Shown here in pieces: positions 1 to 12,343 of a stretch of 12,343 nucleotides of DNA (position 1 is its first letter; each line of letters begins with the position of its first letter). A program made the translations under genes and the position numbers. This DNA is from a virus: UHGV virus genome UHGV-0377305; one strand, 5' to 3'. The notes beneath the pieces are model-generated. The model worked only from the letters and a program-made list of their open reading frames with translations, did not search any database and was not told the origin of the DNA.

Positions 1-1002
1 ATCACCGAGCTGTTCAATATTGCGGGTTGGTATTTTGTAGAGCTGGGCGATTTTCCCCAGACTTTCTGACAGTTCATCAGCTGGCAGCTCAAAGGCTGTT
101 GCCGCCTTTGCTGCCGTACTGGCGAAGGCCAGCAGGTCACGTTTCTGGTCCTCCCAGCTGTCGTCAGGGTTTGCCACATTCATGCGCGCACCACCTTCAA
201 CCAGTGCGGCGAAGTCCACAGCACCGTTTTCCATTGGCAGCTGTTCACTGGCAGCTTTGATGGCATCCTGCATTTCGTAAAAACGCGCAGTGCGGTTGCC
301 ATTATCGTCACGCAGACCATTGACCTGCTTTGCCACACCTTTCATGGCATCTTCCATGCTGGTATAGCTTTTTACCGCCGCCATCACTGGCGCGCCCATT
401 GCCAGCCCTGCAGCCGTGGTGGTGGCTCCGGCTCCTGCGATGCGATCGCGCACTTCAAGCCGTCTTGAGTATTGTTCTCTGGCAGCGTTCATCCGTGCCT
501 GTTGTTCACCCAGACGTTTAAGTGCTTTTTTCTGGCCCGCCAGTGCCTGACGAGTTTCTTCGGCATTTTTCTTAAGTTCTCGCTGGGCACTACTGAGTTG
601 TCTGGTATCAATCCCTGATTCTTTAAGTGCCTGACGTTGTCTCTGGACCGCCCCCAACAAGCCGTTATAGGTCTGCTGAAGTTCCTGTACTCGTGTTTTG
701 GCCTGACTGAATAACTTTGCCTGCGCGGCGGTTGGCCTGTTAGTGGCAGCAAATTGTGTGGCGAGTTTTGCCGCCTCTTCGCGGGCTGCGTTCAGGTTGT
801 TGGCTGTTATGGCTAGTTGCGAGCGCGTCTTGCGAAATTCATCAATTCTGCCAGCCTGCTTATTCAGTTCTTTGAGGCTGTTTCGGGTATTCTGAATTGC
901 GCCAGCCAGCTCTTTCGAACTGGCCTGTGCAGCACGGAATGGGCGGGTGAGTTTGTCAACCGCATTAAGAATGACCTGCAGGCGCAGGTTATTATCACTC
1001 AT
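1..1002 (-). CDS. T: Tail tape measure protein (P2 gpT-like), N-terminal 334 codons; C-terminal part lies beyond the window start
   Basis: Minus-strand ORF opens with ATG (rc of 1000-1002) and reads MSDNNLRLQVILNAVDKLTRPF... with no stop to position 1 (1002 nt, exactly 334 codons). It sits immediately downstream of E/E' with the E' stop overlapping this ATG, as in P2. It is absent from the ORF track only because it runs off the window. Coiled-coil, Ala/Gln-rich composition fits a tape measure. Confidence 0.75.
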   Translation of the reverse strand, partial: MSDNNLRLQVILNAVDKLTRPFRAAQASSKELAGAIQNTRNSLKELNKQAGRIDEFRKTRSQLAITANNLNAAREEAAKLATQFAATNRPTAAQAKLFSQAKTRVQELQQTYNGLLGAVQRQRQALKESGIDTRQLSSAQRELKKNAEETRQALAGQKKALKRLGEQQARMNAAREQYSRRLEVRDRIAGAGATTTAAGLAMGAPVMAAVKSYTSMEDAMKGVAKQVNGLRDDNGNRTARFYEMQDAIKAASEQLPMENGAVDFAALVEGGARMNVANPDDSWEDQKRDLLAFASTAAKAATAFELPADELSESLGKIAQLYKIPTRNIEQLGD

Positions 1003-1431
1003 CGTTGGCCCCGCTTCTCTGAATCGCTTTATACCGCCATTCCAGCACTTCGGTCAGCGGCATAACGTCAGTAACGGATGGCGGCCAGTGAAAGATGGTG
1101 GCGATATCAGCCACCAGATCGTCAACCGTCAGGCTGTCGGTAAACCGGCAAGCACCGACTTCTTCAACAAAAAAGTGACAACCTCAACCGACATGGCAGT
1201 GAGATCTGCCGGGTCCATCTCTGCAATTTCCTGTGCAGTCAGTGCCGGACTGGAGATGCGGGGGATCACGGTCATCATCGCGTTCACATCCATATCCATA
1301 ATGGCCTGCAGGCGTGTACCGCGCAGCGCACCGGACTGCGGTTTACGCAGCACAATTTCGGTGATTTCTGTTTTACCGCGCTTGATGGGGGTATCCAGTT
1401 GAATAGTCTTTTCAGTCTGCTTATCGCTCAT
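995..1431 (-). CDS. gpE+E' fusion made by programmed -1 ribosomal frameshift (tail assembly chaperone, long form)
   Basis: The zero-frame codons TTT TTG inside T_TTT_TTG (minus-strand rc of 1168-1174) allow -1 slippage. The -1 frame then stays open for about 58 codons (FFVEEVGACRFTDSLTVDDLVADIATIFHWPPSVTDVMPLTEVLEWRYKAIQRSGANDE) and ends at a TGA (rc of 995-997) that overlaps the ATG of T. This is the same architecture as P2 E/E+E' and lambda G/GT. Confidence 0.65.
1129..1431 (-). CDS. E: Tail assembly chaperone gpE (P2 E-like)
   Basis: 100-aa minus-strand ORF (MSDKQTEKTIQLDTPIKRG...) between FII and T. It ends shortly after a TTTTTTG heptamer. Position and size match P2 gene E. Confidence 0.8.
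   Translation of the reverse strand: MSDKQTEKTIQLDTPIKRGKTEITEIVLRKPQSGALRGTRLQAIMDMDVNAMMTVIPRISSPALTAQEIAEMDPADLTAMSVEVVTFLLKKSVLAGLPTA
1168..1174 (-). other. Slippery heptamer T_TTT_TTG for -1 programmed frameshift (E to E')
   Basis: Plus strand reads CAAAAAA at 1168-1174, so the minus strand reads TTTTTTG in the X_XXY_YYZ register of the E reading frame. Confidence 0.65.
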
Positions 1432-1456
1432 TTTGCTGTCCTGTCAATTGGGTTCT

Positions 1457-1474
1457 GGCGCGGTATCCCGCGCC
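1457..1474 (-). other. Intergenic stem-loop between FII and E (7-bp GC stem, 4-nt loop)
   Basis: GGCGCGG-tatc-CCGCGCC on the plus strand, a perfect inverted repeat in the 54-nt FII-E spacer. No U-tract follows on the coding (minus) strand, so it is probably not a terminator. It may be an mRNA stability or processing element. Confidence 0.3.
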
Positions 1475-1485
1475 GTTCAGATATA

Positions 1486-2001
1486 TCAGAGGCCGAGGGC
1501 GTTGCGGTGCGCTTCCATCAGGTCCACACCGTCTACAATTTCCACCATGTTGATAAGGTCCACTTCATAGAGCACCTCACCATTGATGGTCAGCTTCGCG
1601 TAGCTGTTGGTACTGGTCACTTTGGTGGTGTTGCTTTCGCCCGTCTTCCACTCGCCGGAATCCACTTCTTTGTGACGTCCACGCACCACAAGCTCCACGG
1701 CCTGCACTTCCCCGGTATCGTCACGCTGGATAGAGCCGGTAAAGCGCAACTGGATACCATCCACCGTGGCTTTGCCCATCTGCTTAAACAGCAGCAGTTC
1801 AGTACCACCAATGGAAAATTCCGTATCCAGTGCGCCGTCATCCAGCCCCAGATCCACATCCACTGCACCCGGCATTCCGCCGCCGCGATACTTCTCATAT
1901 TTGCGGGTAAATTTCGGCAGCGTCAGCGACTCAACGATCCCCTGCCAGTTGTTCCCGTCATTAAACAGGTTCAGGTGTTTTAATTTGCGTGGTAAAGCCA
2001 T
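1486..2001 (-). CDS. FII: Tail tube protein (P2 gpFII-like)
   Basis: 171-aa ORF MALPRKLKHLNLFNDGNNWQG...GGGMPGAVDVDLGLDDGALD..., which closely resembles P2 FII as I recall it. It lies directly downstream of the sheath gene and has an ATG start. Confidence 0.9.
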   Translation of the reverse strand: MALPRKLKHLNLFNDGNNWQGIVESLTLPKFTRKYEKYRGGGMPGAVDVDLGLDDGALDTEFSIGGTELLLFKQMGKATVDGIQLRFTGSIQRDDTGEVQAVELVVRGRHKEVDSGEWKTGESNTTKVTSTNSYAKLTINGEVLYEVDLINMVEIVDGVDLMEAHRNALGL

Positions 2002-2010
2002 GTTGTCCCC

Positions 2011-3183
2011 TTACGCGCTGACCTGGCTGGAGAAATTAACCAGGTACTGATCGGTGATGCGCTGACGCAGCATCAGGTTTTCAAGTGGCGGCACTGGCGT
2101 GTAGTCGTAGTCGATGGTGAGTTTTCCGGCTTTCAGCGTGTCTTTGTCGTTCACCGACTCATCCAGCCAGCAATCACCACCAATGAGATAGCCCTGACTG
2201 ACCAGGCTGCGCATTTTGGCGCGGATACCCTCGATAATGTCGCGGGCCAGCGACGGATTCAGCGGTTTATCCACCGCCCACATGTGCGCTTCTGCCATCG
2301 TGTCCGTCAGCACCTGCGCCGTGCGGGTGTAGTTTTCGAAGGCAAAGAGCGGGTCATCACTCAGGCAGCGGGAACCCCAGAAGCGAAAACCGTCTTTGCG
2401 GATAAGGGTGGTGACGTCGTTCTGGTTCAGCAGTCCCGCATCGGTTGCCGGGTCCTGCAGATCCCAGAACACATCAGCAGAAATTCCGGTGACACCGTTA
2501 ACGCCCACGTTGGACAGGCTTTTGTGCCATCCGGTCTGCTCGTCAATTTTGGCGCGCAGACCAAGCGCACGGGCGGTGGCATAAGCCGTTGCTTCGGCAT
2601 TCAGCACCGTGTCCCAGCCAGTAAAGTCGGGCCAGATCAGCATTCCTTCACGCTGACTGAAGTTTTCACGGTAAGTGATTGCTTCCTGCACCGTCTTGCA
2701 ACCATACGCTGACAGGTAAGCAAATCCACGCAGGCTTTGCGCCACACTCAGCAACTCAGTAGCTACCGCCTTCGTGTCGTGACCTGGCACGCCGAGAATG
2801 CGCGGTTTAACGCCGAGCTGTGACTGGGCAGATAACAGGGCTTTCATGCCTGTTTTTTTACCTTCAGCGGTCACTGCGCCGATGATATTGGTCGTGGTTT
2901 CGTCTTCCGTTTCACCCTGCGGCACACGCACAACAATGGTCACGGGTTTTGCCTGGTCAGCGATGGCATCCAGCGAACGAGCCAGCGTGCCTGACTCACC
3001 CGCTTTACCGCTGGCAGTCAGCACATCAGTGATCAGCACGGGTTTATTAAGAGGAAACATTTTTGCATCGGCATCATCGCCCGTGCAGACCATACCCACG
3101 ATGGCGGTGCTCACCGTGGTAATGGATCGGGTGCCTTCGTTGACTTCAACAACGCGCACCCCGTGGTGGTAATCCTGAGCCAT
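2011..3183 (-). CDS. FI: Contractile tail sheath protein (P2 gpFI-like)
   Basis: 390-aa [36 protein letters not shown]...[31 protein letters not shown]...[24 protein letters not shown], matching conserved P2 FI blocks from memory. A strong SD (AGGAGG, rc of 3193-3198) lies 9 nt upstream of the ATG. Confidence 0.92.
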
Positions 3184-3259
3184 AGTGGCGAACCTCCTGA
3201 TTGGATTAGGCTTCGCCCTATGTTGAAGTGATTGTGCCTGACAAACAGCTAAGCGCAGT

Positions 3260-3277
3260 TGTACCGTTATTCACACA
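3260..3277 (-). promoter_or_regulatory. Candidate Ogr/Delta-type late promoter activator site (TGT-N12-ACA dyad) upstream of FI
   Basis: Minus strand reads TGT-GTGAATAACGGT-ACA (plus-strand tgt at 3260-3262 and aca at 3275-3277, 12-nt spacer), centred about 85 nt upstream of the FI ATG, in the pin-FI intergenic region. P2 late promoters carry this dyad near -55. The motif is short and can occur by chance. Confidence 0.4.
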
Positions 3278-3325
3278 AAATGACGGTATTTGTCTGCTTT
3301 CAGGGATAATCAAAATAAAGCTGAT

Positions 3326-3892
3326 TCAGGGAGATTTATTGTTCTTATTTGCCGGAAATTTTCGATAAATGGTAGAAACGCCTACATCAAAAATCAGTGC
3401 AATACGCTGTCTTGATTCTCCGTCCTCGAGTAAACGCCCAATCTGTGCCCACTGTTCGCTGGTCAACTTAGGACGGCGTCCACCTACTCTGCCTTTAGCA
3501 CGAGCTGCAGCCAGCCCCGCCCTGGTACGTTCAACTATCAGTTCGCGTTCCATTTCAGCCAGGGCACCCATGACATGAAAAAAGAAACGGCCCATTGGGG
3601 TGCTGGTATCAATACTGTCAGTCAGGCTTCGGAAATTCACGCCACGCTGGCGCAGCTCTTCTATCAGCGTAACAAGATGCCGCATACTGCGCCCCAGTCT
3701 GTCCAGCTTCCAGACAACCAGCGTGTCTCCTGCCGATAGTGTCCTGAGCAGCTTTTTCAGCCCCGGTCTGTCGGACTTGGTGCCACTGATTTTATCCTCA
3801 AAAATCCGCTCACATCCCGCACAGTTCAGTGCATTGCGTTGCAAATCGGTGTTCTGGTCATTTGTTGACACGCGTACATAGCCAATAAGCAT
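3326..3892 (-). CDS. Serine site-specific DNA invertase (Gin/Pin/Cin/Hin family)
   Basis: ORF MLIGYVRVSTNDQNTDLQRNAL...DRLGRSMRHLV...GRFFFHVMGALAEMERELIVERTRAGL... carries the resolvase/invertase catalytic N-terminus (the serine in YVRVSTNDQ) and a C-terminal HTH. The track ORF starts two codons earlier (MIM...); the second ATG matches the paralog's start. Confidence 0.9.
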   Translation of the reverse strand: MLIGYVRVSTNDQNTDLQRNALNCAGCERIFEDKISGTKSDRPGLKKLLRTLSAGDTLVVWKLDRLGRSMRHLVTLIEELRQRGVNFRSLTDSIDTSTPMGRFFFHVMGALAEMERELIVERTRAGLAAARAKGRVGGRRPKLTSEQWAQIGRLLEDGESRQRIALIFDVGVSTIYRKFPANKNNKSP

Positions 3893-3947
3893 GATCATCC
3901 CCCTGAATAAAAACCGGAGATGATGCCAGTTAGCCGTTATCTCTGCA

Positions 3948-3973
3948 TTTTCATAAACGTCGGTTTACGGGAA
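3948..3973. other. gix/cix-like 26-bp crossover site A (inverted partner of site B)
   Basis: TTTTCATAAACG-TC-GGTTTACGGGAA. The inner half, extended to a 17-mer CGGTTTACGGGAAACGG (3961-3977), is the exact reverse complement of 5370-5386. The site resembles the Mu gix consensus (TTCCTGTAAACCGAGGTTTTGGATAA, from memory). It lies between the invertase start and the Sv cassette. Confidence 0.6.
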
Positions 3974-4327
3974 ACGGTAAATAAGGCCGCTGATGCCCTG
4001 CCATCGGGGGGAACCGCCGTGGCAGCAAACAGACTCGCCACCCCAAGAAATATTAATGGTGTTCCTTTCGACGGGACGCGGGATATAAACATTACGTCAG
4101 GAATGCCGGAATCAACGGCCAATCAGCGTTATGTTACAGGGGTAAGACTGGGAGCGCAGGCATTAAGCGGCGTACTGGAATATAATTACTCCCTGTCATC
4201 AGGAAATGTGATTACCGGTTTTAAGACTGACGGAGACTGGGAAATGCGTGGTGGTGATGACCGTGTTTATTACAGACAGATACAATATTGTATTAATGGG
4301 AATTGGGTATCCGCTGCAAGTATTTAA
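3962..4327 (+). CDS. Tail-fibre C-terminal variable cassette (Sv); no constant N-terminal part attached in this orientation
   Basis: The open frame begins inside crossover site A (GLRETVNKAADALPSGGTAVAANRLATPRNINGVPFDGTRDINITSGM...). The first roughly 50 residues are homologous to the start of the opposite cassette, then the two diverge. The only in-frame ATGs upstream (3920, 3923) have no usable SD spacing. Reported as a cassette, not an independent gene. Confidence 0.6.
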   Translation, partial: GLRETVNKAADALPSGGTAVAANRLATPRNINGVPFDGTRDINITSGMPESTANQRYVTGVRLGAQALSGVLEYNYSLSSGNVITGFKTDGDWEMRGGDDRVYYRQIQYCINGNWVSAASI

Positions 4328-4447
4328 TTAACGGCTCATGGCGTACGGCAGGCAGCGCCTGATATATGCGTTATCTCAGACAACCCCTGTCCGTATATAG
4401 CGATAGTATTATTCCTGTTTTTATCATTGATTCACATGGTGATGTTT

Positions 4448-4969
4448 ATGCAACTGATTAATGTTAAACGATATTACCCGGAAAATACCCTCTATGGTAA
4501 TGATGTACAGTATTTTCAGAGTGAAGATGGTAAGGATTTCTACGAGTCCCTGCCATTATTCACAAAAAAATATAAACTTTGTATAACACCTGACAGCGGC
4601 ATTATCTGCTCAATATCACAGGACGCTTCGGCGCTGTATCCTGCGGGGTTCTCTGTGGTTGAAGTCGACGAACTCCCTGAAGGTGCTGATATTTCGGGTA
4701 ACTGGAAGTTTGATAATGGCGTGATCTCCCGTATTCCGGTTAACTACGCAAGAAAACTGGAAGCAATGCGCCAGTCATATCTTAATCAGGCATATGAAAA
4801 AATTAATGACTGGAGAACAGAATTACAGCTGGGCACCATCAGTGATGAAGACAGAGCCGCACTTACCCGATGGATGGCATACATCAGTCAGGTGAAAAAA
4901 ATGGAACTACCAGCGATTAAAAACAAAGCTGAATTTGACGACATTAAATGGCCGGAGAAGCCTGAATAA
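4448..4969 (+). CDS. Tail fibre assembly protein (Tfa/gpG/U-like chaperone)
   Basis: ORF MQLINVKRYYPEN...SEDGKDFYE...GFSVVEV...DWRTELQLGTISDEDRAALTRWMAYISQV... has the conserved Tfa layout and the C-terminal Tfa motif. It lies immediately downstream of Sv on the same strand. The track ORF starts at an upstream TTG (4427); the ATG at 4448 is the more likely start. Confidence 0.8.
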   Translation: MQLINVKRYYPENTLYGNDVQYFQSEDGKDFYESLPLFTKKYKLCITPDSGIICSISQDASALYPAGFSVVEVDELPEGADISGNWKFDNGVISRIPVNYARKLEAMRQSYLNQAYEKINDWRTELQLGTISDEDRAALTRWMAYISQVKKMELPAIKNKAEFDDIKWPEKPE

Positions 4970-4972
4970 CGT

Positions 4973-4996
4973 AAAGGGTGCTTATCGCACCCTTTT
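4973..4996. terminator. Bidirectional intrinsic terminator between convergent tfa and Sv'
   Basis: Perfect 9-bp stem AAAGGGTGC-ttatc-GCACCCTTT followed by T on the plus strand, with a T-rich stretch on the minus strand. It sits in the 34-bp gap between the tfa stop (4969) and the Sv' stop (5004). Confidence 0.6.
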
Positions 4997-5003
4997 CCTT
5001 TAA

Positions 5004-5385
5004 TCAGACGGATGAAACTGTGCGCCAGGCATTACCGATATATATCTGCACCGGACGGTAATAAACGCCTCCGATATTATCGGCTGAATTTCTCCCGGTC
5101 TCCTGCACGTTAATACCTGAAAGCATACAACCGGAAGGCGCGCCATAACTCCAGGACATTTCATTACCTCCGGGTGAATGGTAACTCTGGGCACCAAGCT
5201 GAACGTTGCGAACGTATTTGTTATCAGCAGCAGCTTCGGTCATACCGGAGGTAATGTTGATATCCTGCGTTCCGTCAAAGGGAACACCATTAATTGTGTG
5301 GGCATTTGCCAGCCTGTTCGCGGCAACGGCCGTTCCGTTCGATGGCAGGGCATTCGCCGCCCTGTTTACCGTTTCCCGTAAACCG
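5004..5385 (-). CDS. Alternative tail-fibre C-terminal variable cassette (Sv'), start-less
   Basis: The minus-strand frame opens just inside site B, immediately after an in-frame TGA, and reads NLGLRETVNRAANALPSNGTAVAANRLANAHTINGVPFDGTQDINITSGMTEAAADNKYVRNVQLGAQSYHSPGGNEMSWSYGAPSGCMLSGINVQETGRNSADNIGGVYYRPVQIYIGNAWRTVSSV. Its N-terminal part is homologous to Sv and the C-terminus is different. No start codon or SD is at the cassette head. Confidence 0.6.
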
Positions 5386-5399
5386 AGGTTTCAGGGATG
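5374..5399. other. gix/cix-like 26-bp crossover site B
   Basis: TTCCCGTAAACC-GA-GGTTTCAGGGAT, matching Mu gixL (as recalled) at about 20 of 26 positions. It lies in inverted orientation to site A, 54 bp upstream of the second invertase ATG. Confidence 0.65.
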
Positions 5400-5452
5400 C
5401 CGTATATCTGCTTTAAAAAGCATTTCCACCTCTTTTTAAGGAAGGTAAATAC

Positions 5453-6013
5453 ATGCTGATTGGCTATATACGCGTATCAACAAATGACCAGAACACAGGT
5501 TTACAAAGAAATGCGCTGGAATGTGCAGGATGTGAGCAGATTTTTGAAGACAAAATGAGTGGTAAAACGACGCAGCGGCCGGGACTGAAGCGGGCACTGA
5601 AGAAACTAAAACCCGGCGACACACTGATGGTCTGGAAACTGGACAGGCTGGGGCGCAGTATGCGCCACCTTGTTGCGCTGACAGATGAATTACAGCAACA
5701 GGGGATAAATTTTCGTAGTCTTACTGACAACATTGATACGTCAACCCCCATGGGGCGCTTCTTTTTTCACATAATGGGTGCGCTGGCAGAAATGGAGCGT
5801 GAATTGATTGTCGAACGGACACGGGCTGGTCTTGCTGCTGCCCGTGAAAGGGGACGAACCGGCGGCAGACCCCGTCGTCTCACGCAGGAACAATACGAGC
5901 AGGTCGGGCGTTTACTGGCCGGGGGTGTCAGCCGAAGACAGGTGGCACTTATTTTTGATATCGGCCTTTCAACCCTTTATCGTTATTATCCTGCGAGCGT
6001 TTCGGAAAAATAA
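5453..6013 (+). CDS. Serine site-specific DNA invertase (Gin/Pin/Cin/Hin family), second paralog
   Basis: ORF MLIGYIRVSTNDQNTGLQRNALECAGCEQIFEDK...DRLGRSMRHLV...GRFFFHIMGALAEMERELIVERTRAGLAAARERG..., with an SD AAGGAAGG upstream. It is about three-quarters identical to the 3326-3892 invertase by eye (not computed) and is transcribed away from the cassette region. Confidence 0.9.
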   Translation: MLIGYIRVSTNDQNTGLQRNALECAGCEQIFEDKMSGKTTQRPGLKRALKKLKPGDTLMVWKLDRLGRSMRHLVALTDELQQQGINFRSLTDNIDTSTPMGRFFFHIMGALAEMERELIVERTRAGLAAARERGRTGGRPRRLTQEQYEQVGRLLAGGVSRRQVALIFDIGLSTLYRYYPASVSEK

Positions 6014-6112
6014 GACGCTCTCTTTGTTGGGCCTTTACTGAATTAACGCAAAATGGCGTTTATCGGTCTGTGGATATGATAATTCTGTTTATTCAGGAAC
6101 AGGCTGATTATT

Positions 6113-8152
6113 ATGACGTCCAAATGGGTTCAACTATCATCAATGCCCGGAAACTTTACTGTTAAAGTTTCCGGTGGTACAGCGGCATTTCTTGAGGCTC
6201 CCTTTCCTCCGGCCGAAACAAAAGGAGGAATGACATTTGCTGACTGTCTCATCAGTTTTAATACACGGGATTGCCTGTGGGTAAGGCCAGTATCCGGTGA
6301 TCCGAGCGTGGAAATTACCGGTGCGGGTATTGGTGCTGTCATTCCGTTAAGTGCTGATGTTGCCGGTACTGCTGAACCGTCAGACTGGGATAATGCTGAA
6401 ACACATACCCGTCCGTCAGGAAATGAAACTGCTTCCAGCTCCCCTTCCTGGTATTACGTGGTGGTTCTTGCTGGTCAGTCAAACGGGATGGCCTACGGTG
6501 AAGGTCTGCCGCTGCCGGAGACATATGACCACCCCGAACCGCGTATTATGCAGTTAGCCCGTCGCAGTACAGTCACGCCGGGAGGTAAAGCCTGTCAGTA
6601 TAACGACATCATTCTGGCCGACCACTGTCTGCATGATGTGCAGGATATGAGTGGAAAAAATCACCCGAAAGCGGATGTGGCTAAAGGGCAATATGGCACC
6701 GTGGGTCAGGGGCTTCACATTGCCAAAAAACTGCTGCCGTTTATTCCGGCAGATGCGGGGATTCTGCTGGTTCCCTGCTGCCGTGGTGGTTCTGCATTCA
6801 CGGCGGGTGCTGACGGCACGTACAGTGACAGCACGGGTGCTTCAGAGGACTCAGCCCGCTGGGGTGTGGATAAGCCGCTGTATAAGGACTTAATCAGCCG
6901 GACAAAAGCGGCACTGGCGAAGAACCCGAAAAACCGCCTGCTTGCTGTGGTGTGGATGCAGGGCGAGTTTGATATTGATGCGAAGCCGACGGAGCATTCC
7001 GCGCTGTTTCTGGCGATGGTGGAAAAATTCCGCGCAGACCTGGCTGAACAGGCGGAACAGTGTACCGGTGGCAGTGCTGCTGGCGTTCCGTGGATTTGTG
7101 GCGATACCACGTATTTCTGGAAACAGAAAAACGAACAGGCATACCAGGCAATCTATGACGGCTACAAAAATAAAACAGATAAAAACATTCATTTCGTCCC
7201 ATTAATGACAGATGAAAATGGCGCGAATGTACCCACCAACAATCCGACAGAAGACCCGGATATTGAATCCATTGGTTATTACGGCTCAACGTGGCGTAAC
7301 AGTGCCGCCACCTGGACATCTGCGGGCCGGGCCAGCCATTTCAGTTCATGGGCACGTCGTGGGATTATTTCCGACCGTCTGGCCACGGCTGTTCTGACTC
7401 ATGCAGGGCGAACCACAGTAAAAGCCGATGTTCCATCTTCTGAAACTGAAGCACCAGTGCCGTCACCTTCAGAAACTGAAGCAGTAACCACAACACTGCT
7501 GTCTTACCGTGTCAGTGAGTCAGAAGGAAATCTGAAAGCCCAGGGCTGGGAGCCGGCTGGCGGTAAAGCTGAAATTATCAGTGATGCAGGAGGCACAGGT
7601 GGTAAGGCAATGAAACTGACCAAGGAAACAGGTAAATCATCCTGGTATCTGGATCATGATGCCGGTACTGGTGCTGAACTGCTGAAAAATGGTGGTTTAA
7701 TCAGTTGTCGTTTTAAAGTACCTGGCGACCTGGTGGCAAACCAGTATGTCATGGCGCTTTACTGGCCGGTTTCCTCTCTGCCGCAGGGTGTCACCCTGAC
7801 AGGGGATGCAGGGAATAATCTGCTGGCATCGTTCTACATCCAGACAGACGCAAAAGACCTGAATGTGATGCACCACAATGCAAAAGTGGCAACAAATAAC
7901 CAGAAACTGGGAACCTTTGGTGTATTTGATAATGAATGGCATACGCTGGCCTTCCGTTTTGCAGGAAATAACAGCCTTCAGGTTATTCCGGTTATTGATG
8001 GTCAGGATGGTGCCGCGTTTACCCTGACGCAGTCACCAGTAGGAACTTTCCCGGTGGACAAACTCCGCGTAACGGATATCACCAAAAATGCAACTTACCC
8101 GGTGCTGATTGACAGCATTGTGGTGGAAGTGAAAAAAGCGGTAACAGAATAA
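6113..8152 (+). CDS. Putative SGNH/sialate O-acetylesterase-domain protein (NanS / prophage NanS-p-like) with a C-terminal probable carbohydrate-binding domain
   Basis: 679-aa ORF. The central region carries VVVLAGQSNGMAYGEGLPLP...LLVPCCRGGSAFT...VVWMQGEFD...WICGDTTYFW, i.e. the GQSN block and downstream blocks typical of sialate O-acetylesterase (SASA/DUF303) domains. A Ser/Thr/Pro/Glu linker (SETEAPVPSPSETEA) precedes an approximately 230-aa C-terminal domain. Function is assigned from motifs only. Confidence 0.6.
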   Translation: MTSKWVQLSSMPGNFTVKVSGGTAAFLEAPFPPAETKGGMTFADCLISFNTRDCLWVRPVSGDPSVEITGAGIGAVIPLSADVAGTAEPSDWDNAETHTRPSGNETASSSPSWYYVVVLAGQSNGMAYGEGLPLPETYDHPEPRIMQLARRSTVTPGGKACQYNDIILADHCLHDVQDMSGKNHPKADVAKGQYGTVGQGLHIAKKLLPFIPADAGILLVPCCRGGSAFTAGADGTYSDSTGASEDSARWGVDKPLYKDLISRTKAALAKNPKNRLLAVVWMQGEFDIDAKPTEHSALFLAMVEKFRADLAEQAEQCTGGSAAGVPWICGDTTYFWKQKNEQAYQAIYDGYKNKTDKNIHFVPLMTDENGANVPTNNPTEDPDIESIGYYGSTWRNSAATWTSAGRASHFSSWARRGIISDRLATAVLTHAGRTTVKADVPSSETEAPVPSPSETEAVTTTLLSYRVSESEGNLKAQGWEPAGGKAEIISDAGGTGGKAMKLTKETGKSSWYLDHDAGTGAELLKNGGLISCRFKVPGDLVANQYVMALYWPVSSLPQGVTLTGDAGNNLLASFYIQTDAKDLNVMHHNAKVATNNQKLGTFGVFDNEWHTLAFRFAGNNSLQVIPVIDGQDGAAFTLTQSPVGTFPVDKLRVTDITKNATYPVLIDSIVVEVKKAVTE

Positions 8153-8158
8153 AAAAAA

Positions 8159-8187
8159 TCCCGCCGGTCATGATATGGCTGGCGGGA
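8159..8187. terminator. Hairpin after the esterase gene (A8 tract upstream; U-tract only on the minus strand)
   Basis: TCCCGCCGG-(11-nt loop)-CTGGCGGGA, a 9-bp stem with one G-U pair. On the plus strand it is preceded by AAAAAAAA and not followed by a T-run. On the minus strand it is followed by T8. It may act bidirectionally. Confidence 0.3.
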
Positions 8188-8301
8188 GCTACCTAACCCA
8201 TAAAGGAAAATAAAAATACTCCCGAAGGAGTAGTTACCAGTCACTTCGTCATGTTTTTACCCGATAACGAATTATGTAGTCAATATCAAAGGTAAGGTTA
8301 T

Positions 8302-8484
8302 ATGACATTCGTTCATACAATGCTGCTTTATTTCTGCGCTGTGGTCAGTGCGTTATATCTGGTGAGCGGCGGTTATAAGGTCATCAGAAATTATATTCGC
8401 CGCAAAATTGATGACGCAGCAGCCGAAAAGCTCAGTAAAACAGCACAGGCACCATCATCCCCAAACGACCCGACCCCGCTCTGA
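8302..8484 (+). CDS. Hypothetical small membrane protein (60 aa, one predicted TM helix)
   Basis: ATG start with AAGG upstream. Hydrophobic N-terminus MLLYFCAVVSALYLVSGG followed by a basic and polar tail. No family recognised. Confidence 0.5.
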   Translation: MTFVHTMLLYFCAVVSALYLVSGGYKVIRNYIRRKIDDAAAEKLSKTAQAPSSPNDPTPL

Positions 8485-8519
8485 TAACGGGGCAATATAC
8501 CTGCAAAAGGAGAATATTC

Positions 8520-8765
8520 ATGCCAGAGATTAAAGGCACGGTTACTGAAGAGCTTGTCAAACAGGCACTTTATTCTGAAGAAGTGAACCGCGTGCTGAAG
8601 GCGCAGGTTCGCAAGGATTTTGAGGCACAAATCGACGCATATGTTGATGAAGTGCTGGCCCGAATGGTTGGCCGTTCTCCGGCTGAAAACAGCACGGAAA
8701 ATGCTCCTCAACCCGTAGAGCAACCAGAGCCGGTTCAGCCCGGAACTGACGGTACTATGATGTAA
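8520..8765 (+). CDS. Hypothetical protein (81 aa, acidic Pro/Glu-rich C-terminus)
   Basis: Strong SD AAGGAG 8 nt upstream of the ATG, and a perfect hairpin immediately downstream. No family recognised. Confidence 0.6.
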   Translation: MPEIKGTVTEELVKQALYSEEVNRVLKAQVRKDFEAQIDAYVDEVLARMVGRSPAENSTENAPQPVEQPEPVQPGTDGTMM

Positions 8766-8774
8766 CAATACCGA

Positions 8775-8805
8775 CCGGCAGGTTTCCCTGCCGGGTGAAT
8801 TTGTT
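8775..8805 (+). terminator. Probable intrinsic terminator after the 81-aa ORF
   Basis: Perfect 8-bp stem CCGGCAGG-tttc-CCTGCCGG followed by the T-rich GTGAATTTGTT, 10 nt after the stop codon. Confidence 0.45.
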
Positions 8806-9119
8806 AATGCACGTTTTGTGTATTTTCCCTCTGGGGAGAACAGGCAGGGCATATCAGCATCCTGAAACAGGAAGCATTTTTTGGTTTGTATGTCTTGCCA
8901 TTTTGAGATCGAGAACGGCGATAGATGAGCTGTAAGGGAGTCTTACAGGCAGGGTAAACAGGCTCTTTATCCATGATAAAGATCTCCTTTTTATGCATCT
9001 CTGCTTTACAGGAGACCGGGGAATATCATAGGATACGCCACGAGCTCGAAGTAAAGCATTGATGCAAAATTGTCTAAATCGGCCCAGAATAGTTCGCGCT
9101 ATCTGGGTCGCCCTTTATG

Positions 9120-9155
9120 TATGTAGTATCCCATTGATTTGAAACATACTACATA
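9120..9155. promoter_or_regulatory. 10-bp inverted repeat with 16-bp spacer (candidate operator)
   Basis: TATGTAGTAT-(16 nt)-ATACTACATA in the AT-rich region about 230 bp upstream of com. Confidence 0.25.
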
Positions 9156-9197
9156 TACGCACAATCCTACCTTCACTGTATAAAAAGTCAATAAAAT

Positions 9198-9340
9198 GAT
9201 CATTTTATGATCGTTTTCACCACCTAACTCTTCGTTTTCTTTAAGTAAATAATCACCGCCCTGAATCATTGTTGATGACTTTTCAATCTATTTGTTGTAT
9301 CAATTAAACAAACCGAATCGATCGTTTTTGTCGATCGATT
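9198..9340. promoter_or_regulatory. GATC (Dam-site) cluster with palindromes upstream of com, a candidate methylation-sensitive control region
   Basis: Four GATC sites in about 140 bp (9198, 9209, 9320, 9333). Two sit in the palindrome AAAATGATCATTTT and its neighbour, and two in the 9-bp-arm inverted repeat AATCGATCG-tttttgt-CGATCGATT (9316-9340), about 45 bp upstream of the com ATG. This recalls the GATC/OxyR region of the Mu mom promoter. Confidence 0.35.
9293..9310 (+). promoter_or_regulatory. Candidate Ogr/Delta-type late-activator dyad (TGT-N12-ACA) upstream of com
   Basis: TGT-TGTATCAATTAA-ACA, centred about 82 nt upstream of the com ATG. This is the same dyad geometry as upstream of FI. 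Chance occurrence is possible. Confidence 0.3.
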
Positions 9341-9383
9341 GCATGAGAAAGGCATCAACAACAAAGCAGGAGGTTATGCGGCC

Positions 9384-9569
9384 ATGTATCGAAACATACG
9401 GTGCCGACACTGCAATAAGCTACTGGCACGGGCCAGTTTCAGTTATCTGGAAGTAAAATGTCCGCGCTGCAAAACCCTCAATCAAATCACATCTCAGAGC
9501 GCCACAGAGCACCCCACATACACAAGGAAATCCTGCCGTGGGGAACAAGAAACATTACTTTCAGTCTGA
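9384..9569 (+). CDS. com: Com-like zinc-ribbon translational activator (Mu Com family)
   Basis: 61-aa ORF MYRNIRCRHCNKLLARASFSYLEVKCPRCKTLNQITSQSATEHPTY... with the Com-type CxxC...CPRC zinc ribbon and an EHPT motif, as recalled for Mu Com. AGGAGG lies 9 nt upstream of the ATG. The 3' end overlaps the start of the downstream gene by 32 nt, as com overlaps mom in Mu. The track ORF begins at an upstream TTG (9339). Confidence 0.75.
   Translation: MYRNIRCRHCNKLLARASFSYLEVKCPRCKTLNQITSQSATEHPTYTRKSCRGEQETLLSV
9512..9543 (+). promoter_or_regulatory. Possible translation-inhibiting stem that sequesters the MTase GTG start (candidate Com target)
   Basis: CCCCAC (9512-9517) can pair with GTGGGG (9538-9543). 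The start codon lies in the 3' arm and the SD in the 20-nt loop. This is analogous in position to the stem-loop in mom mRNA that Com unwinds. The stem is only 6 bp. Confidence 0.3.
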
Positions 9570-10590
9570 TAAGTCACTAACCTATGGTTCAGTATGCAGT
9601 GGTATTGAAGCTGCGACAGTAGCCTGGAGCAATCTTGGCTGGAAAGCCAGATGGTTCAGTGAAATAGAGGACTTCCCGTCAACACTTCTTTCATATCGCT
9701 GGCCCCATATACCAAATCTTGGTGATATGGCTTTGCTTGCGCCTCGTATCAGGGATGGGCTTATTGAAGCACCAGATATTCTTGTAGGTGGAACTCCGTG
9801 TCAGGCATTCAGTATGTCAGGCAAACGAAAAGGCCTTTCAGATCCACGGGGGCAGTTAACACTGTCTTTTGTTGAACTGGCGAATCAGATAGATACCGTT
9901 CGGGCATCGCTCAATAAATCCCCCTCAATAATCGTATGGGAAAACGTCACAGGAGTTTTAAGTAGCCATGACAATGCATTCGGTCATTTTCTTGGTGCGC
10001 TGGCCGGAGCAGGTTGCGCATTACAGCCAGCAAGGAAAAGATGGGCAAACGCTGGTGTTGTGTCTGGACCATCGCGTATCGTCGCCTGGCGAGTACTTGA
10101 TGCCCAATATTTCGGAGTCGCCCAGGCTCGCAGAAGAGTGTTTGTTGTGGCAAGTGCTGGAAAAAGGCTCGATCCCGGAAAGGTATTATTTGAGTTCCCG
10201 CCTGTGTCGCAGGGCGATAAAAACTATTACGGAAAGAAGAAAAAATCCGAATCCCTTCTTGATCAAGGCATTGAAGGAAAATTGCACCGATATTGCCTTG
10301 AAGCATTGCCAAAACGAACAGGCACAGTAATAGCTGGCTATAACGGAACAACTAACCAGGACATGACTATGTCTGGTGGGCTCATAGTTGAAAGAGCGCC
10401 ATATTCAAGGGTTCGTAGGTTGACGCCAACCGAATGCGAGAGGCTACAAGGTTTTCCCGATGGATATACAGATATTCCATGGAAAAATTCATCTCCAGCT
10501 CATCGTTATAAGGCCATTGGAAATTCAATGCCTGTACCGGTCATGAAATGGATTGGTCGAAGAATACAGGAAGCGTTAAACGAAGTTTAA
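9538..10590 (+). CDS. DNA (cytosine-5)-methyltransferase
   Basis: 350-aa ORF with canonical C5-MTase blocks: GGTPCQAFSMSG (PCQ catalytic motif IV), IIVWENVTG (ENV motif VI), QARRRVFVVA (motif VIII), RRLTPTECERLQGFPDGYT and AIGNSMPVPVMKWI (C-terminal motifs). The N-terminal GSVCSGIEAA stands in place of motif I. GTG start at 9538 with AAGGAAA 8-9 nt upstream; no alternative start exists in frame after the upstream stop at 9454. Confidence 0.88.
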   Translation: MGNKKHYFQSDKSLTYGSVCSGIEAATVAWSNLGWKARWFSEIEDFPSTLLSYRWPHIPNLGDMALLAPRIRDGLIEAPDILVGGTPCQAFSMSGKRKGLSDPRGQLTLSFVELANQIDTVRASLNKSPSIIVWENVTGVLSSHDNAFGHFLGALAGAGCALQPARKRWANAGVVSGPSRIVAWRVLDAQYFGVAQARRRVFVVASAGKRLDPGKVLFEFPPVSQGDKNYYGKKKKSESLLDQGIEGKLHRYCLEALPKRTGTVIAGYNGTTNQDMTMSGGLIVERAPYSRVRRLTPTECERLQGFPDGYTDIPWKNSSPAHRYKAIGNSMPVPVMKWIGRRIQEALNEV

Positions 10591-10608
10591 ACCTAAGCAA
10601 AAGACATT

Positions 10609-10914
10609 ATGAAGTTGGTTTTTGTGCCGTTAAAAGATGTCTTTAAGGAGTGCAAAGGAAAGCGCCAATTTAGTATCAAAAAAGATGCTTATCGGCGCTT
10701 TTCATCGGTATCAAATGAAATGCAAATCTGTATCAAAAAAATCGCCGCGCTATATACCCGAAAAGAAAACGTATTTACCAGTTGGGTGATGCGATTGCTG
10801 ATTGTTGTAAGTCTCGCCTGGACGGGGTGGGCTATTACCCTGGTCTTTTATCTACTGACCGTTATTGCCTTCTGGATCACCCGTAATCAGATGGCGCAAC
10901 AGGTAGCAGCATGA
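10609..10914 (+). CDS. Hypothetical protein; the C-terminal hydrophobic part may be a LysA-like remnant fused to unrelated N-terminal sequence
   Basis: 101-aa ORF. The N-terminal half is AT-rich, hydrophilic and lacks a clear SD. The C-terminal roughly 40 aa (WVMRLLIVVSLAWTGWAITLVFYLLTVIAFWI) is membrane-like and ends overlapping the lysB start (ATGA), the position lysA occupies in P2. Confidence 0.4.
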   Translation: MKLVFVPLKDVFKECKGKRQFSIKKDAYRRFSSVSNEMQICIKKIAALYTRKENVFTSWVMRLLIVVSLAWTGWAITLVFYLLTVIAFWITRNQMAQQVAA

Positions 10915-11339
10915 ACCGGTTACTGCTGGTTGTGCTGGCGTTATTACTGGCGGCGCTGGGCTGGCAGACGTGGCGGCTGGCTGATGCCAGCCAGACCATC
11001 AGCACGCAGGCAGACGAGCTGCAGAGCAAAAGCCAGGCACTGGCAAAGAGCAACAGCCAGCTTATCAGCCTGTCTATTCTGACTGAAACCAATAACCGGG
11101 AGCAGGCGCGGCTCTATGCCGAAGCAGAACAGACCAGCGCGCTGCTGAGACAACGACAACACCGGATCGAGGAACTGAAACGTGAGAACGAGGATTTACG
11201 CCGCTGGGCTGATACTCCTTTGCCTGCTGACATTATCCGGCTGCGGGAACGCCCCACACTCACCGGAGGTGCAGCTTACCGTCAGTGGTTGTCCGCGAGT
11301 GACGCCGTGTCGGCTGGATCAGGCAGCGCCGCGCACTAA
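10911..11339 (+). CDS. lysB: LysB (Rz-like inner-membrane spanin)
   Basis: 142-aa ORF with an N-terminal TM helix (LLLVVLALLLAALGW) followed by a coiled-coil, Gln/Glu/Arg-rich periplasmic region. It lies upstream of R and S with lysC embedded in the +1 frame, the P2 arrangement. Confidence 0.75.
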   Translation: MNRLLLVVLALLLAALGWQTWRLADASQTISTQADELQSKSQALAKSNSQLISLSILTETNNREQARLYAEAEQTSALLRQRQHRIEELKRENEDLRRWADTPLPADIIRLRERPTLTGGAAYRQWLSASDAVSAGSGSAAH

Positions 11340-11472
11340 CGGTGATCTGAATGCGTTGCTGGATGAAACGGAGGCCGCCTGGGCGGTCTGTGCAGACAAA
11401 GTGGATATGATTATTGCGTGTCAGGAGCGAAACAGTGAACAAACCACAATCCCTGCGCCACGCCCTCAATAA
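11182..11472 (+). CDS. lysC: LysC (Rz1-like outer-membrane lipoprotein spanin), embedded in and extending beyond lysB
   Basis: 96-aa ORF in a different frame from lysB, with signal peptide and lipobox (LLCLLTLSG-C) and a Pro-rich mature part. GTG start. Confidence 0.7.
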   Translation: MRTRIYAAGLILLCLLTLSGCGNAPHSPEVQLTVSGCPRVTPCRLDQAAPRTNGDLNALLDETEAAWAVCADKVDMIIACQERNSEQTTIPAPRPQ

Positions 11473-11866
11473 AGCAGTGCCTTATGTCCGCAATAACCCG
11501 GACAAACTGCATCTGTTTGTGGATAACGGTTCGCTGGTTGCCACGGGGGCCAGCTCCATGTCGTGGGAGTACCGTTACACCCTGAACGCGGTGATTGAGG
11601 ATTTCAGCGGCGACCAGAATCTGCTGATGGCCCCGGTTTTGCTGTGGCTGCGTGATAACCAGCCCGATGCCATCAATAACCCGGCGTTACGGGAAAAACT
11701 ATTCACCTTTGAGGTGGATATTCTGCGCAACGATGTCTGTGATATCAGCCTTAACCTGCAACTGACGGAGCGTGTGCTGGTCAGCACTGACGGTAGTGTG
11801 TCGAGCGTTGAAGCTATAGCGGAACCTGATGAACCTGAAGAAATGTGGACGGTGAAACGTGGCTGA
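11435..11866 (+). CDS. R: Tail completion protein R (P2 gpR-like)
   Basis: VNKPQSLRHALNKAVPYVRNNPDKLHLFVDNGS...LNAVIEDFSGDQNLLMAPVLLWLRDNQPD...LQLTERVLVS resembles P2 gpR as recalled. The likely start is GTG 11435 with AGGAG 8 nt upstream; the track ORF starts at TTG 11414. Confidence 0.85.
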   Translation: MNKPQSLRHALNKAVPYVRNNPDKLHLFVDNGSLVATGASSMSWEYRYTLNAVIEDFSGDQNLLMAPVLLWLRDNQPDAINNPALREKLFTFEVDILRNDVCDISLNLQLTERVLVSTDGSVSSVEAIAEPDEPEEMWTVKRG

Positions 11867-12305
11867 ACTGCAGAAAGTGGACGACTGGCTGAGTGCCTTG
11901 CTGGCGAATCTGGAACCAGCCGCCAGAAGCCGCATGATGCGCCAGCTGGCGCAGGAACTGCGCCGGACACAGCAGCAGAACATCAGGATGCAACGCAATC
12001 CTGATGGCAGCAGCTATGAACCGAGGCGAGTAACAGCACGCAGTAAAAAAGGCCGTATCAAACGGCAGATGTTTACAAAACTTCGCACCACAAAATACCT
12101 GAAAACCGCCGCCAGCGAGGATTCTGCCAGCGTGCAGTTTGAAGGTAAGGTGCAGCGCATTGCCCGCGTTCACCATTATGGCCTGCGTGATCGCGTCAGC
12201 CGCAAAGGACCGGAGGTCCGTTACGCAGAGCGTCGCCTTCTGGGTGTAAATGATGATGTTGAGGCAATGACCCGCGACATGATTCTGCAATGGTTGGCGG
12301 GGTGA
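11859..12305 (+). CDS. S: Tail completion protein S (P2 gpS-like)
   Basis: MAELQKVDDWLSALLANLEPAARSRMMRQLAQELRRTQQQNIRMQRNPDGS... resembles P2 gpS. The GTG start overlaps the R stop (GTGGCTGA), which suggests translational coupling. Confidence 0.85.
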   Translation: MAELQKVDDWLSALLANLEPAARSRMMRQLAQELRRTQQQNIRMQRNPDGSSYEPRRVTARSKKGRIKRQMFTKLRTTKYLKTAASEDSASVQFEGKVQRIARVHHYGLRDRVSRKGPEVRYAERRLLGVNDDVEAMTRDMILQWLAG

Positions 12306-12343
12306 TTTTTGTATCAGCAGTGATACAAGTTGCAGCACTGCCG

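Follow-up and report, generated by a model that had tools for sequence, protein, structure and literature searches.

How two blocks of P2-like late genes came to point in opposite directions within one viral sequence is the question raised by UHGV-0377305, a stretch of 12,343 nucleotides analysed here at its full length and referred to as the window. Its minus strand carries T, E, FII, FI and an invertase gene (1-3892): the 5′ part of the tape measure gene T, which runs off the window (1-1002; also called in contigs L003 and L010), the tail chaperone genes E′ (995-1114) and E (1129-1431), with a Pfam Phage_TAC_7 match for the E/E′ region (995-1431), the tail tube gene FII (1486-2001), the tail sheath gene FI (2011-3183), and the invertase gene inv1 (3326-3892). 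The plus strand carries, from 10911 to 12305, lysB (10911-11339), lysC (11224-11472), R (11435-11866) and the P2-like gene S (11859-12305), which are 99.7% identical to positions 16157-17551 of L007, the intact P2-like prophage of E. coli STEC2018-553 from which the annotation of both blocks was mapped.

Both blocks are 99.7-99.8% identical to this one colinear prophage, window 1-3966 aligning to its reverse strand (26910 to 22945, 99.77%) and window 10755-12343 to its forward strand (16001-17589, 99.69%). The coordinates and strands given in the original prediction are borne out by these alignments, and the opposite orientation of the two blocks is real. In both L007 and phage Cartapus a single strand holds all late genes from lysis through H, the invertase, FI, FII, E and T, so the arrangement in the window reflects a genuine rearrangement and not a stable non-P2 architecture shared among relatives. 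V, W and J, which had been expected beyond the right edge, do follow S in L010, a longer contig of the same structure. L010 is separated from the window by a patch of 14 SNPs in FII, which shows that the samples contained at least two P2-like variants. No phage record and no complete E. coli genome contains as much as 80% of the window at a single locus, and coverage by any phage record is at most 45%. Its P2 genes are P2-like at 97-99.8% identity and the colinear late order is broken by an insertion and an inversion, so that on sequence comparison the P2 part reads as a rearranged derivative, not as an intact member of the Peduoviridae (Elveevirus-type). Taken together, the data suggest that the window probably represents two prophages, a Mu-like one nested inside a P2-like one, that were later rearranged.

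The DNA between the two blocks (3961-10754) is 99.4-99.6% colinear with ordinary Mu-like prophages and is the right end of a distinct transposable prophage of the Mu-like kind, comprising a G segment, gin, a SASA/DUF6645 gene, com, a C5-methylase gene and attR. Window 3944-10617 is colinear with one such prophage (L012) at 99.6%, and the whole Mu-like layout, from left-end transposition genes through tail, G segment and gin to com-modification, is seen in L009. The G segment holds Sv (3923-4327, plus strand), an orphan tail-fibre variable part that is severed from the Mu constant part and instead carries a 15-codon leader derived from the P2 flank (MPVSRYLCIFINVGL followed by RETVNK...); the exact 134-aa fusion product is found on only two contigs of the collection. 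It also holds a tail-fibre assembly gene (4436-4969, plus; Pfam Caudo_TAP); the 10 contexts shown for its exact protein are all Mu-like prophages, with both G orientations represented; Mu-like relatives show still other flanks in these contexts. Sv′ (5004-5385, minus), the alternative variable part, is silent in the present orientation. The S protein encoded by the SW070917 Mu-like prophage ends in the identical sequence, and the G segment of that prophage is 100.0% identical to window 3975-5230. The G segment of the window is accordingly attributed, from these identities, to the Mu-like phage.

To its right lies gin2 (5453-6013, plus), a Gin invertase identified through Pfam and through the Mu Gin structures 3UJ3/4M6F (E=2e-91, residues 1-182), with the catalytic-serine motif MLIGYIRVSTNDQ. 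The SASA/DUF6645 gene (6113-8152, plus; Pfam) occupies the same position in L002, L008, L009 and L012 and, by that comparison, is standard in the right arm of this Mu-like group. Two small genes (DUF1378, 8302-8484; DUF826, 8520-8765), com (9384-9569; Pfam Zn_ribbon_Com) and a C5 cytosine methyltransferase gene (9538-10590; Pfam DNA_methylase), all on the plus strand, lead to the right end, attR (10700-10754, plus; terminus ...CGCCGCGCTATA). Base 10754 is where homology stops for each of four insertions of independent origin, in ttdB, rihA, lambdoid gene L and P2 lysA. Phage Mu makes a 5-bp target-site duplication and has 5′-TG...CA-3′ termini, whereas the direct repeat measures 4 bp in 3/3 insertions here (TACC, CGAC, AAAG) and the element, which begins with TG, finishes in ...CTATA and not in CA. 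The element is thus Mu-like by gene content, while its end chemistry may differ in detail.

This prophage is nested in the P2-like lysA, as seen from both sides. The lysA-type gene of L007 is intact and encodes 125 aa; the insertion point lies after nucleotide 218 of 378, and comparison with it identifies the last 52 codons of the gene on the far side of the Mu terminus (10755-10914, plus), beginning with the target duplication TACC (10755-10758, plus). The right junction (10754/10755, the latter being L007 16001) is present on five contigs. An open reading frame at 10609-10914 is an accidental in-frame fusion of Mu and LysA sequence. The left junction had been predicted in silico as a 99-aa LysA′-Mu fusion and was found as that exact sequence in the same metagenome sample, on a 34.6-kb contig (L013; ENA ERZ27281703:k141_3210) from the sample that yielded L004. 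This contig carries the P2 lysozyme gene, lysA′ up to L007 16004, the Mu left end, and the genes for the repressor, MuA, MuB and Gam, its Mu part being 99.99% identical to SW070917; it is expected to extend ~790 nt beyond gixL, the left crossover site of the Mu segment. Both junctions recur in a second dataset, SRR7411377 (L006 and L014). The original prediction of a single P2-type element with cargo does not survive the Mu terminus at 10754, the split lysA and the joining of its other half to the Mu left end. Invertase 2, the esterase and the com-methyltransferase genes do lie inside the inverted segment, as had been proposed, but they are the right end of the Mu-like prophage and not P2 cargo.

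Where the rearrangement took place can be read from the crossover sites. These are 26-bp imperfect palindromes in which 12-bp half-sites flank a 2-bp core. Only two sites within 8 mismatches of the consensus are found in the window (3948-3973 and 5373-5398), in inverted orientation and in frame with Sv and Sv′, both with a TC/GA core. The right one, termed site B or gixB (TTCCCGTAAACC GA GGTTTCAGGGAT, core GA at 5385-5386), is the native Mu-like gixR; the same 26-mer with its flanks occurs in L008 and L009, and both flanks are contiguous in the ordinary Mu-like prophage L012. The left one, gix*, reads TTTTCATAAACG-TC-GGTTTACGGGAA and is a hybrid in alignment with the P2 and Mu sites, its outer half corresponding to P2 gixR and its core (3960-3961) and inner half to Mu gixL, so that P2 sequence gives way to Mu sequence precisely within the 2-bp core; homology to P2 extends to 3966, and homology to Mu begins at 3944-3956. 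The P2-like reference sites have the cix form, TTTTCATAAACG TT GGTTTGGGAGAA, with core TT in both references (L007 and L001). The native P2 18-mer with this core was recovered from at least 120 IMG/VR contigs, whereas the hybrid 18-mer and 30-mer gave no match in IMG/VR and the 30-mer none in the JGI metagenomes. No high-identity copy of the joint occurs in 5,426 complete E. coli genomes, in which the best full-length match (86%) is a Mu gin homologue. The joint is present in three assemblies (the window, L010 and L004), and its polarity, outer(d) to inner(a), fits an inversion and not a deletion. These alignments identify gix* as the recombinant joint and indicate that site B is not an endpoint of the rearrangement. 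The predicted inversion of more than 10 kb thus holds as to its type and the involvement of tail-fibre crossover sites, with the endpoint moved from site B to 3948-3973. Intact P2-like phages natively carrying TTTTCATAAACG-TC-GGTTTACGGG beside the invertase would contradict an inter-prophage inversion.

The proposed history comprises two steps. The first is documented by the junctions described above: a Mu-like phage nearly identical to the E. coli SW070917 prophage integrated, in the direction of the P2 late genes, into a P2-like (Elveevirus-type) prophage, where it split the lysis gene of lysA type and left the 4-bp direct repeat TACC. Each of the two phages has, besides its Gin-family invertase, an invertible tail-fibre segment flanked by 26-bp crossover sites. 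Either inv1 or gin2 would then have synapsed Mu gixL, located in the tail-fibre gene S, with P2 gixR, the invertase-proximal site of the P2 segment. These two sites would have been inverted and ~13.7 kb apart, and strand exchange at the 2-bp core is predicted to invert 13,743 bp, including from the Mu side the G segment, gin, SASA/DUF6645, com-methylase and attR, and from the P2 side lysA′, lysB, lysC, R, S, V, W, J, I, H and the P2 G segment. Such an inversion would place the P2 invertase-FI-FII-E-T block against the Mu G segment and point it away from lysB-R-S, and recombination between crossover sites of the two prophages most likely flipped ~13.7 kb. The joint itself is observed, and the 13.7-kb segment is seen as one isomer, in short-read metagenome contigs throughout, with the parental arrangement reconstructed; the 1.4-kb G segment is flipped in SW070917 and occurs in both orientations among relatives.

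Both invertases are small serine recombinases (~190 aa) that combine a Resolvase catalytic domain with HTH_7 at the C-terminus, and they are 72% identical to each other. The P2-like inv1, of the Gin family (Pfam Resolvase and HTH_7, E=3e-53), is 99.8% identical to the L007 invertase and appears from its sequence to be intact, with an N-terminal GYVRVST serine motif (MLIGYVRVSTNDQ). The enhancer of Gin, Cin, Pin and Hin systems (sis) is Fis-dependent and located in cis, in the 5′ portion of the gene for the invertase; the 5′ parts of inv1 and gin2 are conserved, at 76% nucleotide identity. Since inv1, gin2, gix* and gixB all look intact, further flipping would be possible. Unequal core dinucleotides strongly disfavour recombination by Gin, Hin and Cin, and the difference between the reference P2-like cores (TT) and the Mu core (TC) speaks against the inversion. 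The reciprocal junction, in which a P2 variable part would follow the constant part of Mu S, was not recovered: a search with that constant part gave only Mu-type S proteins, at 97% identity or more, and exact look-ups of two predicted chimeras were negative.

The original prediction had described a single P2-type prophage in which cargo rides in a huge invertible segment bounded by site B (5386) and the end of H, the window being one isomer. Part of it stands: the block orientation is correct, a crossover site at the end of H does exist in the reference prophages (L007 ~21096-21121), and this site and B are inverted with respect to each other and share a reading frame (CTT GGT TTG versus CTC GGT TTA), so that the reaction is geometrically possible and the constant part of H could fuse to Sv′ as had been envisaged. 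However, the sequence to either side of B is native to Mu, the cargo runs up to a Mu-type terminus that interrupts lysA, with the rest of a 40-kb Mu-like prophage on the other side, and 3960/3961 is the only place in the window where a non-native joint occurs. These findings refute this reaction as the origin of the present state. Far from restoring a parental genome, which would require gix* and its reciprocal partner, an inversion between B and H would yield a P2 tail fibre with a Mu variable part, and the model as a whole is very improbable. More remote still is the idea of a stable, native architecture of a viable hybrid phage. The P2 late operons are separate transcription units, and an inverted block may still be expressed; yet the coverage of phage records stays below half of the window, lysA is split by ~40 kb of a complete Mu-like genome including MuA and MuB, and the two elements together are over twice as large as a P2-type genome (Cartapus, 33.4 kb), which leaves this reading hardly credible.

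An assembly artefact deserves more attention, all contigs being from short-read metagenome assemblies. If both prophages carried an identical G segment, an assembler could have entered it via the P2 flank and left via gin, the true genome being colinear; the SNP patch in FII and the missing reciprocal junction are compatible with such an error. The two sequences share only ~11 bp at the joint, however, and no longer repeat able to mislead the assembler into joining P2 flank and G segment exists there, while the identical path occurs in all three assemblies. No P2-like context for the G segment was seen in 24 contigs (10 distinct contexts shown), in the 5,426 complete genomes or in IMG/VR, and an artefact would still presuppose that the Mu G segment had previously moved into a P2 prophage by a gix-mediated event, hence inter-prophage recombination, and we regard it as unlikely. 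Somewhat less probable again is that the invertase-FI-T block stems from a second P2-like prophage or another molecule, through a larger chromosomal inversion or an intermolecular fusion in place of the 13.7-kb flip. The far side does lie outside the window, and E. coli strains can hold several P2-like prophages (up to six places per genome), but both blocks share L007 as best relative at the same identity, and the extra element explains nothing more. Gin-type invertases act on two sites and an enhancer on one supercoiled molecule and favour short distances, which also counts against it.

The preferred reading, an inversion between crossover sites of two nested prophages, has partial precedents. 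As in the Mu G segment, a variable part and an assembly gene lie between inverted 26-bp sites with a GA/TC core, gin directly right of the segment (gin2 being a close homologue) is followed by a com-regulated modification gene and attR, and both G orientations occur among genomes. Unlike in Mu, the left partner of the segment is the invertase flank of another phage and not the Mu S gene, the segment is Sv-tfa-Sv′ (1.4 kb) as opposed to S/U/U′/S′ (3 kb), and com is paired with a C5 methylase in the place held by mom. The P1 Cin system reportedly also recombines quasi-cix sites, whereby the core dinucleotide undergoes localized conversion (Iida and Hiestand-Nauer, 1986-87). The P2-like sites are likewise of the cix type, and a non-identical partner would leave a converted core, which fits the TC in the hybrid; the partner here, however, is a genuine crossover site from the inversion system of a second phage and not a chance chromosomal quasi-site, and the event comes from natural samples and was not selected in the laboratory.

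Min of plasmid p15B and the three-site shufflon of a P2-like prophage in EPEC (PMC4272514) also have more than two sites per molecule, nested or overlapping inversions and several tail-fibre C-termini. There, one element and one invertase move 2-4 kb, whereas here four sites, two invertases and two unrelated phages would be involved in a flip of ~13.7 kb that includes structural, lysis and transposition-end sequences. E. coli EC958 carries several prophages with invertible tail-fibre segments and 26-bp sites of the CCTC-GG or CGTT-GG class, and an invertase from one prophage was inferred to flip the segment of another (PMC4134206), but those inversions stay within one prophage and join no sites across prophages. 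The same Mu-like group is found inside resident prophages in the Stx phages LC727895/LC727881 and in the lambdoid gene L of SW070917, as simple insertions with no later recombination between the elements.

In the present isomer, the Mu S constant part would be parted from its own variable parts, and Mu attR would be flipped relative to attL, leaving the Mu-like phage presumably unable to transpose; the P2-like phage would carry ~40 kb of foreign DNA, its lysA being disrupted and its late region divided. While the flip lasts, this intermediate state could keep both prophages disabled, as a kind of reversible lock. It is conceivable, albeit doubtful, that the locus is an intermediate through which two unrelated phage families exchange host-range cassettes, with recombination of Mu gixL and P2 gixR giving the present state and a second inversion, between Mu gixR (B) and P2 gixL at the end of H, re-flipping the intervening DNA. 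Both prophages would then be colinear again, each with the other's tail-fibre segment. Mosaicism at the tail-fibre ends of Mu, P1 and P2 has long been known, and Mu-like S proteins with P2/P1-type 'NVGLGE...collar' ends exist; if the exchange is real, it would provide a concrete site-specific mechanism for such mosaicism exactly at crossover sites.

Open reading frame listing and similarity searches divided the 12,343 bases of the window into three pieces, the outer two being P2-like. The first (1-3966), carrying T (partial), E/E′, FII, FI and the DNA invertase inv1 (3326-3892), all on the minus strand, shares 99.77% identity with the reverse strand (26910->22945) of L007, an intact P2-like prophage integrated adjoining ssrA in E. 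coli STEC2018-553, and 96.9% with phage Cartapus (Peduoviridae, Elveevirus). The last (10755-12343) matches the forward strand of L007 (16001-17589) at 99.69% identity and holds, by similarity to L007, the final 160 nt of a lysA-type gene followed by lysB, lysC, R and S on the plus strand. The original prediction that two P2-type blocks lie here in opposite orientation was therefore correct, and this orientation is not native, since L007 and Cartapus keep all of these genes on a single strand in the order lysis genes-R-S-V-W-J-I-H-invertible segment-invertase-FI-FII-E-T. V, W and J, which had been anticipated beyond S, do follow it in L010, a 15.2-kb metagenome contig colinear with L007. This contig is otherwise identical to the window, with 17 differences confined to two short patches in FII (1729-1882, 14 within 154 bp) and at the end of S (12294-12320), a pattern that points either to a recombined patch or to another P2-like variant present in the community.

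The DNA between the two blocks had been regarded as cargo of a single P2-type element, and is actually the right arm of a Mu-like prophage nested in lysA, both junctions of which were found. Window 3944-10617 is colinear with an ordinary Mu-like prophage (L012, 99.64%), and 5237-10754 matches L009, the Mu-like prophage of E. coli SW070917, at 99.4% identity. Reference Mu-like elements of ~40 kb hold the repressor, MuA, MuB and Gam at the left end, and at the right end S is followed by the G segment, gin, SASA/DUF6645, DUF1378, DUF826, com and a C5 methylase. Position 10754 (...CGCCGCGCTATA) is the shared homology endpoint for four independent insertions, beyond which lie ttdB, rihA, the lambdoid tail gene L and, in the window, P2 lysA, with more unrelated flanks among the listed contexts; a constant terminus with unrelated flanks characterizes the end of a transposable phage.

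Several further features of this Mu-like group were observed. Its direct repeat is 4 bp rather than 5 bp in three independent insertions (TACC, CGAC, AAAG), and, unlike canonical phage Mu, its right end terminates in ...CTATA rather than ...CA, the left end beginning with TG (window 10750-10758; L013, a 34.6-kb contig, 745-760; L009 2060-2075 and 41925-41935; L025 2700-2712 with the Mu-like prophage L008 12440-12455). Where Mu has com-mom, the window carries com and then a C5 cytosine methyltransferase (9384-10590), whereas close relatives that share this G segment have a Mom-family gene instead (L016 11092-11829, L019 647-1384), so that the gene for DNA modification, too, is a cassette that can be swapped. 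The 679-aa protein encoded at 6113-8152 (+), with SASA-type carbohydrate esterase and DUF6645 domains, is conserved between gin and com in the group; it might deacetylate surface sugars or mediate superinfection exclusion, though both are guesses. One relative (L011 10001-10420) contains an additional 139-aa ORF directly 5′ of full-length S, in which the first 90 residues of S are repeated before the sequence diverges, marking a partial duplication of, or an insertion into, the beginning of the tail-fibre gene.

L007 carries an intact lysA-type gene of 125 codons, and the window retains only the part of it after nt 218. Mu-like transposition into lysA should have joined the 5′ part of the gene to the Mu left end, and this junction was built in silico from L007 and the SW070917 left end with duplications of 3-6 bp. 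The 4-bp version predicted a 99-aa LysA′-Mu fusion, the exact sequence of which is present in a collection of 15 billion proteins (P0121) and is carried by the 34.6-kb contig, from sample ERZ27281703. This contig runs from the P2 lysozyme through lysA′ up to L007 16004 (100% identity), and then into TGTAACCAGG..., the repressor, MuA, MuB, Kil and Gam, its Mu-like portion being 99.99% identical to SW070917. The same sample contains a contig, L004, 100% identical to window 3837-11354, and both junctions were found again in a second dataset, SRR7411377 (contigs L006 and L014). Nesting of the Mu-like prophage in the P2-like lysA is thus established from both sides. Exact scans of GTDB representative genomes and JGI metagenomes for the attR/lysA junction returned none, and the arrangement of the window was in no phage record and no complete E. 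coli genome searched.

At this junction, an ORF (10609-10914, +) reads out of the Mu right end in frame into the last 52 codons of the lysA-type gene; the resulting 101-aa chimera is encoded on 5 contigs of the collection and has a precomputed Pfam LysA hit on record, while our own Pfam scan gave none. The same Mu-like group also resides inside other prophages, namely in the lambdoid tail gene L of SW070917 (L009 1413-2072 and 41987-42730), and the Stx-converting phage records LC727895 and LC727881 are annotated 'inserted Bacteriophage Mu-like phage', so that nesting inside prophages recurs.

Exactly two Gin-type crossover sites occur in the window. Site B (5373-5398, TTCCCGTAAACC GA GGTTTCAGGGAT) has the sequence and both flanks of ordinary Mu-like prophages and, judged on these, is the native Mu-like gixR. 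The second site (3948-3973, TTTTCATAAACG TC GGTTTACGGGAA) is hybrid: its left half and everything leftward are P2, as beside the invertase in L007 and Cartapus (TTTTCATAAACG TT GGTTTGGGAGAA), and its core, right half and everything rightward are Mu, as in the Mu-like gixL within S (TTATCGATAACC TC GGTTTACGGGAA). P2 homology stops at 3966 and Mu homology starts at 3944-3956, and the half-sites place the switch within the central dinucleotide, at 3960/3961, which is the cut position of serine invertases. The segment enclosed by the two sites is Mu's own G segment, with window 3975-5230 being 100.0% identical to that of SW070917, where it is flipped; the exact tail-fibre assembly protein has a Mu-like context in all 10 distinct places among the matches listed, in both orientations.

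The hybrid site is rare. A 30-mer across it had no match in JGI metagenomes, and neither this nor a hybrid 18-mer had one in IMG/VR, where the native P2 18-mer has at least 120. Among complete E. coli genomes none showed the joint at high identity; full-length matches reached at most 86%, in the homologous Mu gin region, and the exact hybrid ORF (15 P2-flank codons plus Mu Sv, the variable part of S) is present on only two contigs.

As the attR-lysA junction makes the Mu-like prophage co-directional with the P2 late genes, a parental order can be proposed, in which a and b (site B) denote the Mu gixL and gixR, c the P2 gixL at the end of H, and d the P2 gixR adjoining inv1. It would have read from P2 K and lysA′ across attL into the Mu-like prophage with Sc (the constant part of S), a, G(Mu), b, gin and attR, and then through 'lysA and lysB to H, c, G(P2), d, inv1, FI, FII, E and T. 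Sites a and d would lie in inverted orientation, and their exchange would flip the intervening DNA and bring the flank outside d up against the inner side of a, exactly the joint observed; with the unseen P2 part taken from L007, the inverted segment would measure 6,794 + 6,949 = 13,743 bp. The original prediction had instead made site B and the end of H the endpoints. The opposed blocks it described stand, and an exchange between b and c is permitted by site orientation and reading frame, but as the origin of the present state it fails, as it would put G(P2) rather than G(Mu) beside inv1, while site B retains native flanks on both sides and the enclosed segment matches the Mu G segment with 100% identity. 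A deletion would give outer-outer flanks or leave a circle; the joint pairs outer with inner flank, the polarity of an inversion, on which ground a deletion or fusion product was rejected. Repeat-driven misassembly at the joint was rejected because it would have had only ~11 bp in common there to act on.

The evidence comes throughout from short-read metagenome assemblies showing a single isomer, in which two identical G copies may, though improbably, have collapsed; such a collapse would still need a prior gix exchange between the prophages. The inversion between a and d should also leave a reciprocal joint, in which the constant part of Mu S (...SAFIDNLGL) runs on into a variable part of P2 type (GE..., e.g. 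CTTTATCGATAACCT[C/T]GGTTTGGGAGAAG). A DNA pattern scan of GTDB genomes for it gave 0 matches, high-identity protein matches to the Mu S constant part were all Mu-type S proteins, and two predicted Sc-P2 chimeras were absent on exact look-up; the contigs of two candidates, P0112 and P0002, were ordinary Mu-like prophages from other samples. The cores also differ, TT in P2 reference sites and TC in Mu sites. With Hin, Gin and Cin, unequal cores recombine inefficiently and leave a converted core behind, which fits the observed TC yet makes the event rare; alternatively, the P2 prophage of the window may already have had a TC core.

Both invertases, inv1 and gin2 (5453-6013, +), the latter a close homologue of Mu Gin, are apparently intact with the serine motif and are 72% identical to each other; mutual complementation of Gin, Cin, Pin and Hin has been known since the 1980s. 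Across 3326-6013 they flank a single 1.4-kb invertible segment, diverging from each other, and form a 395-nt inverted repeat (76% complementary). Without the inter-prophage joint this mirror-image layout would not exist; it provides the segment with two enzymes and two potential enhancers.

In the present isomer, the Mu S constant part would be detached from its own variable parts, and the Mu right end would be flipped relative to the left, which, going by how the Mu transpososome assembles, would prevent transposition. The P2-like prophage would have its lysA and its late region split and would be more than double a P2-type genome in size (Cartapus, 33.4 kb). If exchange between site B and the end of H followed that between a and d, each prophage would be colinear again and would hold the G segment of the other. 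P2/P1-type variable ends do occur in some Mu-like S proteins of E. coli (P0065, P0071, P0074), consisting of a collar domain or an GEAAKRDVGTGENQ... end like that of P2 H, joined via 'NVGLGE', the P2-type reading of the crossover site; cassettes have thus been exchanged between families in evolution exactly at this site.

The components are all textbook: Mu G/Gin, P1 C/Cin-type sites, P2-like invertible tail fibres and Mu-like insertion into prophages. Mu, P1, P2, e14 and p15B have mosaic tail-fibre genes with seams at crossover sites, but to our knowledge a natural case of one phage's site physically joined to that of another has been lacking until now, and the literature searched described no inter-prophage invertase recombination, joint of two phages' sites or inversion spanning both. 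The locus is such a natural joint, a hybrid 26-bp site that switches at its 2-bp core from P2-like to Mu-like prophage sequence; transposition of one prophage into the other has brought the two within a few kilobases. As a practical lesson, gene blocks resembling cargo in an invertible segment may represent a second mobile element. More broadly, the locus suggests that prophages lying inside or near one another can, if their invertases cross-react, reshuffle DNA far beyond their own 1-3 kb segments, that inter-prophage inversions can immobilise ('ground') both prophages, and that two successive events would exchange host-range cassettes without homologous recombination.
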